Position numbers: made by a program. Positions 21,001-24,000 of a stretch of DNA of 64,000 bases are shown here, piece after piece. The DNA comes from a candidate division WOR-3 bacterium (GTDB lineage Bacteria > Hydrothermota > Hydrothermia > LBFQ01). Numbering within the stretch: the first letter of the stretch is position 1; each line of letters starts with the position of its first letter. Where the stretch lies: positions 1 through 64,000 of the forward strand of contig JBDRWW010000005.1 in assembly GCA_039802605.1 (NCBI GenBank). The letters are read 5' to 3'.

Positions 21001-24000
21001 AAGGGCAACACTTTTCTTGTTTTGACCAATTATAAGCGATGAATTCTGTGAAACCAAAACTTTATCATCGCTAAAATTTTCCATTTTTTTCATTTTTTCC
21101 ATCAGACTTTCAATTTTTGATATAAGTTCATTTAAGGTATCATCGGCTTTCAAATTCTGATTTTTTGGAGTTATCTTTAATATCTCTAAATTCTCCTTAA
21201 ACCTTTTCAATACAAGGGGGCAGGTTATCCAAGCGAAAACACCCCTAACGGAACGAACTGGGTAAAGCAATATCTTGGCATCGGTTATGCTTATGCAACT
21301 TGCAAAATCGGAAGAATCTTCCTCGGGCCCGAATATTATTTCCACGGCATCCTTATTCCAATTTCTATAAGCCAAATCCCTTAGAACACCCTTTATTCCG
21401 CTTGACCATAGAACCGGAAAGCCCGTATGTCTCTCCCTTTGAACGGGCAAATCCACATAAGAGACGCTTTGCCCGGCACCCATATGCACCGGCGTTTCCG
21501 CATAAAATGTTATCAATGCGCCCTCTTTATACATATCTAACCCCCTTTTACTACCAAAACCAAATTTGTCCCTATAAACTCCTGATCTCCCGCCATATCC
21601 TTAACCTTGTACCCGTTCCCATCCTTTACCAAAAACCCAAGCGTTTCTATTGAAATGTCTTCCTCACACTCCGCCCAAATAACCGCTCCGGGTGGTAAAG
21701 ACTTAACGGTTTTTCTTCCCTTATTCTTTGAATTAATACCCAGAATACTATACCCATCAACACACATAGAAATCACCTTAAAACCTTCAATCTTTGGAAC
21801 GAAGTTATCCCCTTCAAAAACCCCATAACTCAAAAACAAAAACATAACCCTATCCTCCCTTTTTAAATCCAGTTTTTCGTCTAATCCAAGTTCTTTAAGA
21901 AGGAATTCCCGGAAATCACAATTTTCGGCTTTATATCTCACACTTCTCATTTCCCCACCGAGTTTTAAAACCATAGGTGTGTTATATAAAAACCCTTCGT
22001 CATTTTTATCTTTGAAATCCACCCAAAAAGCGAAGGAACAATCATCATTCAACTCCAAATACTTTACCCTATACATCGCATTTTCCTCTCCTCCTACGGA
22101 ATTTAAGTTTCTGTCCATCTTTATACCGACCCTACCATCATATTTAAAGATACTCGCATTTCCTACAATATCCCTATTCAAAGTGTTAGGATTACCTTTT
22201 AAAAGTTCCTTTAAGCCTTTAAGATTGATAAACCCCCGAAAACCCTCAATTTCCTCAGAACCTTTATAAATCGGAAGCATTTCAATATTCGGTTTATTCG
22301 TGTTTTTATATTTAAAAATCCTAAAATTGCCATCATTTTGGGGTTTTAATATGAAGAATCTATTACCGGAGTCTTTTTTCCTCTCGCCATAAAGGTTGCA
22401 AGGCTTGGGTAATAAAAGTTCTCCCTTATACTCCACAAAAGGACCATAAACGGCGTTTAAAATGTTTGAAACATCTTTATTTTTGTGGGTGTATATCTTT
22501 GAACACACCGCACCCGCAAATGTTGTGGGATGGGGTGGGAATACGCTTTCGGCCACATCACCCATGTTAAAAGGTTTTCCAGAACCAAAGAACAAAACAT
22601 CAAAGGGTTTAATGGTTAGTTTTATCACTCTATGGATTTCAATATACTAAGGGCAACCAACCTTATAAGCGGTTTCTTATTTTTGTTGTAAATATACTCT
22701 TCAAAAGCAATTTCAACCTCTTCTGGTGGTATAGTGTATGATATTTCTATAGGAAGCCAAGGGAAGGGAAAACCATATTTACGCCATAAGTAATACCAAT
22801 CTTCAATTGTCCAATACCAACGATTGTGCGGAATTGGCACATCGTTATGCTTCCACAAATCCAAAAAGTGAGGAATGGCATAATCGGGATATTTCAACCA
22901 ATAGTAATAACCGGCATATTCCCCGGGTCTATTTTTAAGAAAATACGAAAGTTTTGAAATTTCAGATCTCATATGGTAATAAGCGGTGGCTTCGCATAAA
23001 CTTTCCTCAATTACCTTGTAATAATCGGGAAAACTACCCGATCTGTATTTATGATTTGGGGCATCAAGGTATGCATGCGTTAATTCGTGAATTAGAACGA
23101 ATTTAAAAACGCTTTCGGGATTTTGATATTTCCAAATCCTTTCGGGGCATAGATAAATTCTACCATTAGTATAGCAACCCAAATTTACAATCTTTGTTTT
23201 ACATCTTGAAAGCATACGGTCAAGTTCCTCCGATGAAATATGCTCTCCCCTTTCCATCCTACTTTCAATGACTTGCATAATATCCTTTACGCATTCTTCG
23301 CTTAATCCATCACTCGGCGGGCAAACCTGATCCATAGTGCTTTCGTTTACGGTTATAACCTCCGTAATTTTGTGCCAAGCCATTATAAGATATGTTAGCC
23401 TATTGACTACATCGTTATACAAATCCATAGGCACATTTATGCTGCTGTCCATATTATGTATGACCGGCATAGGATGGTAATTATATAACGGAATCCGGTT
23501 ATGCGTTATAGGGCTTAAAACCCAAGGTCTTAACGAATATTATACGGGTATATGCGATTATTTGAACACTTATCAGTTAAAAACCTTATTTTACAGGTTT
23601 AAAGCCCGCGATTTTAACCAATACAATTTTACCCAAAACCGAAGAAAAAAGGTCGGATAAAACCGCTTGGGTGTTCTCTATTAACTGTTTGTTCCAAATA
23701 TCTATTTCTTCCTTCGCCTTCCTTTTAGCATAAACCATCATACTATCAAAAACGGGTGAGGCCTCAAAAGACTTCATGGGTGTTCCGAAAATCCCCAATT
23801 CTTCCGAAACAACCCACCACTTTTGAATACTTACATCTATCTTTGGTTCCGGCATAACTATATCCACAGTTATCGTATCCCCCTTATGCCCGAGTTTGAT
23901 ATCCTCTTTCTTTATCTTTGAAATATCAAAACCCAACTTGTAAAGGACAACATAGCTTATGTTTGTTTTTCTTCCCCCTATCTTTATGGGCCCGGGTATT

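Follow-up and report, generated by a model that had tools for sequence, protein, structure and literature searches.

The type III-B operon and gene X

The window analysed here, a 64,000-nt stretch of a candidate division WOR-3 genome (contig JBDRWW010000005.1, positions 1 to 64,000), carries a type III-B CRISPR-Cas operon in which cas10/cmr2 is accompanied by cmr1, cmr3, cmr4, cmr5 and cmr6 on a single strand (12087-22628). All of its genes lie on the minus strand. cmr3, of the Cas5 group (21537..22628; PADLOC Cmr3 E 1.9e-51, Pfam Cas_Cmr3 E 2.5e-47), is followed by cmr4 (20488..21534; PADLOC Cmr4 E 3.3e-81), cmr5 (20151..20507; PADLOC Cmr5 E 1e-29) and cmr6 (19217..20173; PADLOC Cmr6 E 7.1e-68). 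Next come csx3, of a ring-nuclease family (18895..19272; PADLOC Csx3 E 2.8e-30, Pfam Cas_csx3 E 4.5e-27), and a membrane CARF gene with a Cam1-like TM+CARF architecture (17963..18898; PADLOC PDLC01053 E 1.3e-47), whose translation is hydrophobic in its N-terminal half. The cas10/cmr2 gene (15378..17966; PADLOC Cas10 E 2.9e-134) encodes an N-terminal HD dipeptide at position 14 and the GGDD cyclase motif at position 676. Downstream of it are the CARF-HEPN gene csx1 (14074..15381; PADLOC CARF9 CARF_HEPN E 1e-128), cmr1 (13258..14061; PADLOC Cmr1 E 3.4e-45) and, as the last gene of the operon, a second cmr1-like gene (12087..13256; PADLOC Cmr1 E 2e-27). No CRISPR array was found within the window; several contig ends in this genome bear arrays. 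The genome is 90% complete, and neither Pfam Cas6_C nor Cas1 was detected in it.

The first gene of the operon, here called gene X (22625..23470, minus strand; protein P0001), encodes a 281-amino-acid zincin-like protein with the pattern HExxH...EE...QPxEY. Reading of the ORF and its translation gave an ATG start codon and a TGA stop codon, the latter overlapping the GTG start of cmr3 in the sequence GTGA; the preliminary description of this ORF as the head of the cmr operon was thereby confirmed. Because of this overlap, the protein would be made together with the Cmr complex. A spacer of 115 nt (23471..23585, minus strand) precedes gene X and includes a promoter-like TTCAAA-16-TATAAT at 23566-23539; such sites were not enriched in the scanned region (33 versus 35.5 in shuffles), and what this one offers is a consistent position only. 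Further upstream lies a DUF4230-family gene (23586..24236, minus strand; Pfam PF14014 E 4.4e-9), which also precedes gene X in the same-genus genome G065 (neighbour cluster 20, comprising 23586-24236 of the window and 9236-9883 of locus L042).

Gene X had no family match in Pfam (E<=0.01), PADLOC, NCBIfam or PHROGs, as had been noted before. Specifically, no Cas, CARF or accessory profile of PADLOC-DB 2.0, NCBIfam and the Pfam Cas models matched it, its homologs in the scanned loci fell into no PADLOC family, and a sensor domain (CARF, SAVED or GAF) was absent by Pfam and PADLOC. Among 1.84 billion representative sequences, 74 homologs were obtained at E<=1e-3, the same figure as before, of which 23 reached 1e-10 and five reached 1e-30. 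The names returned for these relatives were all 'hypothetical protein', and the Thermus plasmid records are annotated likewise. Gene X is a member of a rare, so far unnamed, real and conserved family. As no source names it, a Pfam or defence-library model would make the family visible in annotation.

Conserved motif and predicted fold

The gene X protein has HELTH at residues 128-132 and EE at 155-156, that is, HExxH-x22-EE. In 68 family sequences, H128, E129, H132, E156 and Y185 were invariant, whereas E155 was conserved in at least 90%; in the 25 closest sequences, H128, E129, H132, E155, E156, S157, A161, E184, Y185 and I276 were all invariant. The preliminary description had taken the whole HExxH-x22-EE motif as invariant. 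The distance to the glutamate pair is x22-23 in gene X, and the loop between the HExxH helix and the glutamate helix varies in length among its relatives.

Weak sequence similarities also point to zincins. Among 76 members, sub-threshold Pfam matches were to zincin families only, namely DUF4344 (16 members), DA1-like (14), SprT-like (PF10263; 12, best E 0.032), M76 (10) and M78 (PF06114; 5, best E 0.0022). The best match of the family profile to a PDB chain had E 0.36, and the alignment of the family HELxHA...IE with the HELTHA...INE of thermolysin (E 5.3), which places the thermolysin NE on the EE of the family, holds at the motif level only.

An AlphaFold2 model built from a 68-row alignment was a single domain with pLDDT 91.5 and pTM 0.90. 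In it, E155 and E156 lie in the helix of residues 149-166, which follows that of HELTH. The zincin fold is a mixed beta-sheet sub-domain with the active-site helix after it. In VIA-align against 48,161 chains, the 13 best rows (M1 aminopeptidases, M3, DPP III and YbeY) had Z 9.2-8.0. These scores are moderate; a Z of about 9 is only slightly above the 7-8 typical of unmatched models. Zincins made up nearly all of the 50 best rows, and the top M1, M3, DPP III, thermolysin-like and YbeY rows aligned over 115-183 residues at Z 9.2-7.5. Foldseek alone was not significant (best E 0.075, a YbeY row). Both the predicted zincin-like fold announced in the preliminary description and its warning about weak Foldseek scores were borne out. 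Wss1 and SPRTN also appeared in the fold comparison at Z 6.8, 6.2 and 5.9, with Z 6.8 for Wss1 and Z 5.9 for SPRTN.

With the clan MA gluzincins (thermolysin of M4, M1 aminopeptidases including LTA4H, M3 oligopeptidase F and DPP III), gene X shares the HExxH helix, the glutamate on the next helix and a tyrosine, and its predicted fold aligns with theirs over 155-183 residues at Z 9.2-7.5. It differs from them in lacking family-level sequence similarity by Pfam and by the PDB profile search, in being a single 281-residue domain, and in its glutamate spacing, which is variable among relatives. Peptidase family M1 is defined by a GxMEN exopeptidase motif and HExxH-x18-E. Gene X was not assigned to it, as G.MEN is absent and the spacing is x22-23; PF01433 was matched in 5 of the 76 members with a best E of 0.037.

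On the basis of motif and model, the product of gene X is most probably a zinc-dependent hydrolase of the gluzincin type, soluble and built of one domain, and is predicted to be a metallopeptidase. The metal would be bound by H128 and H132 of the active-site helix together with a glutamate of the following helix, E156 or E155, and E129 would act as the general base. Many zincins use a tyrosine to stabilise the transition state, and the invariant E184-Y185 of QPxEY could supply it here. We infer metal binding and peptidase activity from these features, and 'candidate protease' remains a reasonable label for gene X.

Distribution and genomic contexts of the family

Within the phylum, matches at E<=0.01 were found in 7 of 272 genomes, and four of them were real (G000, G065, G059 and G057; E<=1e-30). 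The other three (G061, G036 and G040; E ~0.006-0.008) were short stretches, with stops in G036 and G040; G061 (E 0.008) was rejected as a family member since the fetched region gave no profile match. All four real copies lie in type III-B loci, operonic with their genes, in two gene orders, in agreement with the preliminary description of the intact copies. G059 additionally holds a broken second copy away from any cas gene. Gene X was present in 4 of the 16 phylum genomes with a Cmr3 homolog and missing from the other 12.

The four genome sets examined yielded 4 real matches in 272 genomes and matches in 3/401, 4/151 and 2/38 genomes. Twenty DNA runs in 12 studies, mostly labelled as hot-spring metagenomes, were returned as carrying gene X, and no RNA run was among those listed. 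The family is mostly borne by thermophiles, including Thermus, where the megaplasmid copies have toxin-antitoxin pairs, IS elements and restriction genes around them. Among viral contigs, the only match was weak and partial (residues 113-168, E 3e-6) and contained no member ORF, and a tblastn search of P0001 against 50,697 phage records gave no match. Such a patchy and rare distribution is typical of accessory rather than housekeeping genes.

Contexts outside the phylum, which the preliminary description lacked, were compared for 41 copies forming 28 clusters at 60% identity. The collections were scanned with one peptide pattern, [VIL]IEES[LM][ACS][NET]A[VIT], drawn from a 25-row alignment, so the sampling is biased; context genes were simple longest-ORF picks, and many contigs were short. 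Eleven of the 74 representatives coincide, or nearly so, with a locus whose context was seen. The comparison left out two loci of ~1 kb (L023 and L027), one in which no intact gene X ORF was picked (L035) and the plasmid hits H2, H5 and H7.

Only 7 of the 28 clusters lie in or next to cas operons. Six of these are type III (III-B and III-D) and one is type I-A, where gene X stands between cas7 and cas5. In two phylum genomes (G059 and G057), gene X directly follows an effector-less CARF gene (CARF7/Cas_APE2256), and in loci L025 and L028 a CARF-HTH gene (Cas_NE0113 plus HTH) lies 15 nt upstream; the gaps to the flanking CARF genes are 9-17 nt in G059 and L025. Among the closest representatives with a placeable context, P0003, P0007, P0008, P0009, P0010 and P0012 were in type III loci and P0011 was not.

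Restriction-modification genes adjoin three further clusters. Specifically, the three settings were a type I hsdR with a YgjP-like zincin, a type IIG enzyme, and an SNF2-DUF4391-methylase-Res series. Stand-alone nucleases, helicases or methylases (RmuC, DUF2779, PLD and UvrD/AddAB-like) adjoin about 10 of the 28 clusters, and a pair of UvrD and PD-(D/E)XK genes beside gene X is conserved, recurring on a contig from a metagenome and on a megaplasmid of Thermus brockianus. Two clusters (L011 and L024) have housekeeping surroundings with queA, phosphorylase and glutamate dehydrogenase genes. No neighbour common to all contexts was found. In control windows of 10 kb drawn at random from this genome, a cas gene occurred in 0 of 13 and a IIG restriction-methylase-like gene in 1 of 13. 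The presence of any PADLOC hit within the flank was dropped as a measure of defence, as 9 of the 13 random windows scored as well; for the same reason, the RmuC, UvrD and AddAB-like neighbours could be repair genes.

Placing the III-B label on the family tree takes a minimum of 2-3 changes, and rows linked to III-B enclose a restriction-linked clade. The family is thus not CRISPR-specific, and some relatives of gene X have restriction enzymes, DNA nucleases or helicases as neighbours. The idea that association with type III-B defines the family is not supported, given these restriction, nuclease/helicase and housekeeping contexts together with the label changes. The label 'CRISPR-associated' applies to a sub-clade but not to the family as a whole.

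A putative accessory of nucleic-acid-targeting systems

We consider it probable, though by no means assured, that gene X encodes a gluzincin-like putative metallopeptidase serving as an optional accessory of nucleic-acid-targeting modules, free of second-messenger gating and with a substrate located on nucleic acid. The family would have moved between III-B, III-D and I-A CRISPR systems, type I, IIG and III restriction-modification and nuclease-helicase pairs, and would be independent of cyclic oligoadenylate (cOA) signalling rather than a dedicated cOA-gated effector. The protein may cleave another protein, one bound to the nucleic acid on which the module acts or competing for it. A stalled effector complex, whose removal would limit self-damage, and an invader protein that blocks the nuclease are possible substrates; as no neighbour is common to all contexts, we propose them by inference only.

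A dedicated type III role was weighed against this accessory role. Type III cas operons have been described as including non-core protease genes (Shah 2018, PMC6546367; Hoikkala 2024, PMC11229360). CalpL (Lon-SAVED), SAVED-CHAT and the small aspartic peptidases of the Csx15/20 type are, like gene X with its putative protease, of this kind, but they belong to the Ser, Cys or Asp classes, whereas gene X is of a putative zinc class, has no fused cOA sensor and belongs to a family also noted outside type III loci. On the model of CalpL, SAVED-CHAT and Csx29, gene X could be an effector or signalling protease downstream of Cas10 and cOA, acting via a neighbouring CARF protein or by docking to Cmr. 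We regard this as unlikely. The 6/7 share of type III among cas-linked clusters, the six of seven placed closest representatives in type III loci, the position right after CARF7 (G059, G057) or CARF-HTH genes (L025, L028), the overlap with cmr3 and the GGDD motif kept by Cas10 all agree with it. However, besides lacking CARF, SAVED or any other sensor domain, gene X has no constant CARF partner (TM-CARF, Csx1 and Csx3 in the window, Csx1 alone in L017, CARF7 in G059), one member belongs to an operon of type I-A, a type without cOA synthesis, close relatives at type I and IIG restriction systems are nested among the III-B rows of the tree, and 12 of the 16 Cmr3-bearing phylum genomes do without it. 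Prediction of a gene X-Cmr3 complex (25-row and 6-row alignments) gave scores of 0.00, 0.36 and 0.00 against a mark of 0.32, a result that speaks neither for nor against an interaction.

CapP-like zincins are described as accompanying many different defence systems and acting on a neighbouring HTH protein (bioRxiv 10.1101/2022.04.27.489752), and CapP, IrrE and ImmA (M78, COG2856) are regulatory zincins from operons of defence systems and mobile elements. Like gene X, CapP is a small HExxH zincin that occurs within the operons of many unrelated defence systems. A regulatory protease of this kind, which would cleave a repressor on stress and so switch on the operon that it heads, seems quite improbable from our analysis. 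It would fit the promiscuous distribution, the leading position of gene X in the window, the CARF-HTH protein encoded 15 nt upstream in L025 and L028 and the M78 matches, yet these matches are below the Pfam cut-off, an HTH gene is not adjacent to gene X in the window, nor in most of the other contexts, and the single-domain model is without the GAF domain and HTH-like linker reported for CapP and IrrE. IrrE and CapP structures did not appear among the 50 best VIA-align rows, though a relationship may exist all the same. It is very unlikely that gene X has no defence function and is a housekeeping or repair-linked peptidase caught in variable regions and incidental in cas operons. The surroundings of L011 and L024, the possible repair genes among the neighbours and the PADLOC hits in 9 of 13 random windows speak for such a peptidase; against it stand the seven clusters embedded in cas operons, which represent three subtypes or more and in which reading frames overlap or nearly abut, the absence of cas genes from all 13 random windows, and the patchy rarity of a family found on Thermus megaplasmids with toxin-antitoxin, IS and restriction genes. 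That gene X is no protease but a YbeY-like enzyme, a metal-dependent RNase or phosphodiesterase that might process RNA or degrade cOA, has hardly any likelihood. The metallo-endoribonuclease YbeY (UPF0054) gave the best Foldseek row and tied for the best VIA-align rows (Z 9.2 over 120 residues with rmsd 3.2, and Z 8.4), with which gene X has a core zincin-like fold in common, and ring nucleases are frequent in type III loci. The metal site of YbeY follows H-x3-H-x5-H. In gene X, which is twice as long and has extra C-terminal helices, the position of the third histidine is P138 (HELTHAYLDAP), in a column that is not conserved, and HExxH with its conserved glutamate after the first histidine and a glutamate on the next helix replaces the three-histidine site; assignment to UPF0054 was rejected accordingly. 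In addition, Csx3 is already at the locus, and most relatives of gene X are in systems without cOA.

Small zincins of other families occur in comparable places. The minimal zincins of the YgjP-like/DUF45 (PF01863), WLM and SprT-like groups are, like some copies of gene X, small cytosolic zincins encoded right after a restriction gene. In two loci (L015 and L020), hsdR is followed in tandem by gene X and a YgjP-like one (E 6e-33 and 2.5e-35). The two are separate families, as gene X has no PF01863 match and both are present as different genes where they co-occur. Cmr7 (SSO1986) has been called a III-B protein with a 'metalloprotease domain' (Vestergaard 2014, PMC3973734), and no PDB chain so named appeared in the profile search with gene X (E<=10) or among its 50 best fold rows. 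Term searches of the articles by Shah 2018, Hoikkala 2024 and Shmakov 2018, covering their main texts, returned no zincin or HExxH accessory family, though a supplementary cluster list could hold it, and our literature search for a CRISPR-associated metallopeptidase combined with cyclic oligoadenylate returned nothing.

If active, gene X would add zinc as a fourth catalytic class to the proteases of CRISPR loci and, unlike CalpL or SAVED-CHAT, would do so without a messenger sensor. That it recurs inside CRISPR operons (III-B, III-D and I-A), downstream of type I hsdR and beside nuclease-helicase pairs suggests a common job in nucleic-acid-targeting immunity, for which the turnover of stalled complexes or the removal of protective invader proteins are likely candidates. 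Were the system-independent accessory role true, a proteolytic step would be common to otherwise unrelated immune systems. That gene X is the founding member of a zinc-protease class of system-independent Cas accessories, built into operons of three or more CRISPR subtypes (III-B, III-D, I-A) as well as restriction and nuclease-helicase modules, which would clear shielding invader proteins or stalled complexes from the target nucleic acid, is a speculative proposal that we hold to be rather unlikely. Thermus thermophilus is a genetically tractable host; since Thermus carries the family, the role of gene X is directly testable. A word-index search for fused, longer forms of gene X returned none, which is weak evidence, and one family member among the representatives, of 464 amino acids, is an EVE-zincin fusion. 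In other proteins, the EVE domain reads modified nucleic acid.

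The operon of the P0001 gene in the window

The gene at 22625-23470 on the minus strand starts with ATG and encodes P0001, a protein of 281 aa. Its TGA stop codon shares bases with the GTG start codon of the next open reading frame (GTGA). It is followed on the same strand by genes encoding Cmr3 (PADLOC E 1.9e-51), Cmr4 (3.3e-81), Cmr5 (1e-29), Cmr6 (7.1e-68), Csx3 (2.8e-30), a membrane CARF protein (TM-CARF; 1.3e-47), Cas10/Cmr2 (2.9e-134), the CARF-HEPN protein Csx1 (1e-128) and, at the operon end (12087-14061), two adjoining Cmr1-like proteins of 267 aa and 389 aa (3.4e-45 and 2e-27). 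Cas10 retained an N-terminal HD and the GGDD motif. This order is unusual for type III-B: the two Cmr1-like genes come last, and cas10 follows csx3 and TM-CARF, both accessory genes, instead of lying close to cmr1. Upstream, a DUF4230 gene in the same orientation, which also precedes the P0001 gene in the same-genus genome G065, is separated from it by 115 nt that include one promoter-like site. Such sites were no more frequent in the scanned region than in shuffles.

No CRISPR array was found within the window. The genome (1.65 Mb, 23 contigs, 41% GC, 90% complete) carries array-like repeats of at least two types at six contig ends (C5:111196-111450, C9, C13, C15, C18 and C23) and in one contig interior (C3:55370-55568), and Cas1 and Cas6_C had no Pfam match in it. 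Elsewhere in the window, an 849-aa open reading frame (28218-30767, plus strand) has a beta-eliminating lyase domain confined to its C-terminal half (residues 442-813), the N-terminal ~440 residues belonging to no family; an IspD-IspF fusion gene lies near it (26407-27471, minus strand).

Sequence and predicted fold of the family

P0001 had no match in Pfam (E<=0.01), PADLOC, NCBIfam or PHROGs. An exhaustive search of 1.84 billion representatives returned 74 homologs at E<=1e-3, 23 at <=1e-10 and 5 at <=1e-30. All source names returned were 'hypothetical protein' (Thermus, Armatimonadetes, Fimbriimonadales, Bacteroidales and others), and no relative so named carried a precomputed Pfam domain. 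In a 68-row alignment, H128, E129, H132, E156 and Y185 were invariant and A133, E155, P182 and E184 at least 90% conserved, giving the signature HELxHAY ... (V/I)IEESLA ... QPxEYxGY with a loop of variable length between its first two parts. C60, C90 and an 'ICPER' strand immediately N-terminal of the active-site helix are further features common to the 25 closest sequences. When all 76 family members were scanned at E<=1, the recurrent Pfam matches, all below the cut-off, were solely zincins: DUF4344 (16), DA1-like (14), SprT-like (12), M76 (10) and M78 (5).

The AlphaFold2 model from the 68-row alignment (mean pLDDT 91.5, pTM 0.90) comprises a beta-sheet sub-domain (1-107), the HExxH helix (118-135), the EE helix (149-166) and additional helices. 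No PDB match reached significance with Foldseek (top row YbeY, E 0.075). Comparison with 48,161 chains by VIA-align gave LTA4H as the best match (Z 9.2, 178 residues aligned, rmsd 3.9), followed by aminopeptidase A (9.1), tricorn factor F3 and M3 oligoendopeptidase F (8.8), a YbeY-like protein (8.4) and DPP III (8.3); nearly all 50 rows were zincins. The re-scored Foldseek list agreed (YbeY Z 9.2, thermolysin-like LasB, M1, collagenases, Wss1 6.8, SPRTN 5.9). Because unmatched models commonly reach a best Z of 7-8, the weight of the fold evidence comes mainly from the invariant motif, with which it agrees. When PDB sequences were searched with the family profile, the alignments were at motif level only, one of them placing the family HELxHA...IE on thermolysin HELTHA...INE (E 5.3). 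The preliminary description had reported a rare family with an invariant HExxH motif and a predicted zinc-metallopeptidase fold; this observation was confirmed and its homolog counts were reproduced.

The M1 motif is defined by GxMEN and a characteristic spacing; GxMEN is absent from P0001 and the spacing differs, which ruled out M1 membership. The three-His site is the YbeY motif, and P0001 lacks it, position 138 being Pro. Sequence and model together support a competent gluzincin-type active site, which makes metallopeptidase the most likely activity.

Genomic contexts within and beyond the phylum

Matches at E<=0.01 occurred in seven of the 272 phylum genomes, four of them real (the window's genome, G065, G059 and G057), and every intact copy lay in a III-B locus, as the preliminary description had stated. 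G065 has the window's order (DUF4230, zincin, Cmr3, Cmr4). In the III-B locus of G059 the gene is flanked by a CARF7 (Cas_APE2256) gene and the TM-CARF gene; in G057 it is truncated by the contig end and adjoins a CARF7 gene likewise, with Cmr5 and Cmr4. A second copy in G059 is broken and has no cas gene nearby. Cmr3 homologs were found in 16 of the 272 genomes, and the four zincin-bearing genomes are among these 16. In eight further phylum loci, two of which end just upstream of cmr3, the cmr3 neighbour was Cmr1 or an unmatched gene, never the zincin. The cmr gene series of some III-B operons are interrupted by HepT-like/MNT toxin-antitoxin pairs (L038, G059:C5, 13952-14708; L040, G057:C77, 2496-3141) and DUF6036/AbiEii-like nucleotidyltransferase genes (L017:14252-14809; L040:1367-1924). 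The last gene of the G059 locus (L038, 1415-2719) encodes an AAA ATPase of 435 aa whose N-terminus weakly matches an EVE domain (E 1.2e-4).

Beyond the phylum, collection scans yielded five genome loci, 22 metagenome loci and one weak viral match. For four of the genome loci the search was widened to whole genomes around them, and the family occurred in 2 of 38 genomes of an archaeal phylum, 3 of 401 Bacteroidota sampled and 4 of 151 Thermotogota; plasmid searches added five Thermus megaplasmids. Membership was confirmed by local profile searches (E 1e-15 to 1e-97). The 41 copies formed 28 clusters at 60% identity, with neighbours annotated by PADLOC and Pfam or from the plasmid records.

Seven of the 28 clusters lie in or beside cas operons: the window with G065, G059, G057, and four further loci or locus groups. 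These are L017 (66-repeat array, zincin, Cmr1, Cmr3, Cmr4, Cmr5, Cmr6, Csx1, Cas10), L019 (III-B operon, 22-repeat array, divergent zincin), L025/28/29/30 (CARF-HTH gene, zincin, III-D-type Cas10) and the type I-A locus L065 (csa5, cas7, zincin, cas5, cas8a). Three clusters adjoin restriction-modification genes: L015/18/20 (hsdM-S-R, YgjP-like zincin, P0001 homolog), L016 (type IIG and a 1444-aa UvrD-like protein) and L062 (SNF2, DUF4391, zincin, methylase, type III Res), whose copy has an in-frame TAG. About ten adjoin stand-alone nucleases, helicases or methylases, namely RmuC; PLD; UvrD; UvrD with a PD-(D/E)XK nuclease; DUF2779 (one locus with GmrSD and MqsA near); UPF0227 with REase-ARP, GIY-YIG or an Eco57I-type methylase; DUF4917/SNF2-PLD; and MBL hydrolase/DUF262. 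Two lie amid housekeeping genes (L011 of Thermoflavifilum thermophilum, and L024), five were uninformative and one is the broken copy. The preliminary description, made from phylum contexts, had cast the protein as a candidate CRISPR-associated protease; further cas loci did emerge, but so did many non-cas loci. This interpretation is supported in part: the CRISPR label holds for a sub-clade built into CRISPR effector operons, not for the whole family.

The arrangement of the zincin gene, small open reading frames, a PD-(D/E)XK nuclease (841-996 aa) and a UvrD-like helicase (1027-1079 aa) is common to a metagenome contig (L036:4106-12809) and a Thermus brockianus megaplasmid (L092, NZ_AP025594.1, 12034-19359), where a toxin-antitoxin pair and genes for a restriction endonuclease and a methylase lie next to it; this module could be a defence or repair cassette in its own right. 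At L015 and L020, type I hsdR is followed by a tandem of two distinct small zincin genes, the first being YgjP-like/WLM-like (PF01863; L015:9392-9955, E 6e-33; L020:2612-3127, E 2.5e-35); an SbcD-like phosphoesterase and an SbcC-like ATPase come next at L015. Two diverged paralogs in tandem precede a UPF0227 alpha/beta-hydrolase at L060 (G609:C4, 8983-10863), and this zincin-UPF0227 pair recurs at L058. At L033, a 779-aa protein without Pfam family (469-2805) is encoded 2.6 kb upstream of a complete homolog and itself matched the family profile weakly (E 9.5e-8). L028 carries a 172-aa remnant (4160-4675) that matches the III-D-type Cas10 proteins of L025 and L029 at their N-terminus. DISARM-like DrmD and DrmMI genes come after it, suggesting that one defence module directly after the zincin was swapped for another.

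As a control, 13 random 10-kb windows of the window's genome were searched with PADLOC (E<=1e-8). Some match occurred in nine (generic ATPases, methylases, MotB-like and others), so a defence-library match nearby is meaningless as a criterion here, and the nuclease and helicase neighbours were not counted as shown defence genes. A IIG restriction-methylase-like gene and a type II methylase occurred in one window each and a cas gene in none; cas and restriction adjacency is well above this small baseline, which comes from one genome and is compared with zincin lineages that are related to one another.

A rapid maximum-likelihood tree (85 rows), built without the plasmid copies and the rows from the archaeal, Bacteroidota and Thermotogota genome searches, placed every cas-linked row in one 30-row clade (SH-aLRT 99), to which the L021/22/26 group, the two housekeeping rows and the rows linked to type I/IIG restriction also belong. 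Three changes were required for the III-B label, of which strongly supported branches forced two. III-B-linked L017 is the sister of the restriction-linked clade, which is nested in a group with G057 and G059, and the RmuC, UvrD, PLD and AddAB-like rows form a separate 22-row clade. Contexts were placed for seven of the closest representatives: P0003, P0007, P0008, P0009, P0010 and P0012 are type III and P0011 is housekeeping. P0004-P0006, which are closer to the window than any others beyond its genus, are not among these seven.

Possible roles of the zincin

P0001 thus represents a new unannotated zincin family, one sub-clade of which is integrated in CRISPR effector operons, and the family overall is a roaming accessory of nucleic-acid-targeting modules. 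Its partners are alike in being machines that work on nucleic acid, and one member, P0031, is an EVE-zincin fusion; on these grounds we favour a protease whose substrates would be proteins attached to the target nucleic acid, or effector complexes that have stalled. A dedicated effector gated by cyclic oligoadenylate (cOA) is a rival because CARF genes stand directly upstream in two architectures. It is unlikely, since P0001 has no recognisable sensor domain, no neighbour common to all contexts was found, and the family also occurs with systems that make no cOA. The second rival is a regulator like ImmA/IrrE/CapP: CapP-type zincins likewise accompany many defence systems, but the HTH partner and GAF domain described for them (bioRxiv 10.1101/2022.04.27.489752) are missing in most of our loci.

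Literature searches found no description of a zincin or HExxH Cas accessory family, nor did term searches of the main texts of Vestergaard 2014 (PMC3973734), Shah 2018 (PMC6546367), Hoikkala 2024 (PMC11229360) and Shmakov 2018 (bioRxiv 270033); the supplements of these surveys may hold a cluster number for it. Defence-linked zincins and CRISPR accessory proteases are already known kinds of protein, and the main text of Vestergaard 2014 gives Cmr7 as a 'metalloprotease domain' protein.
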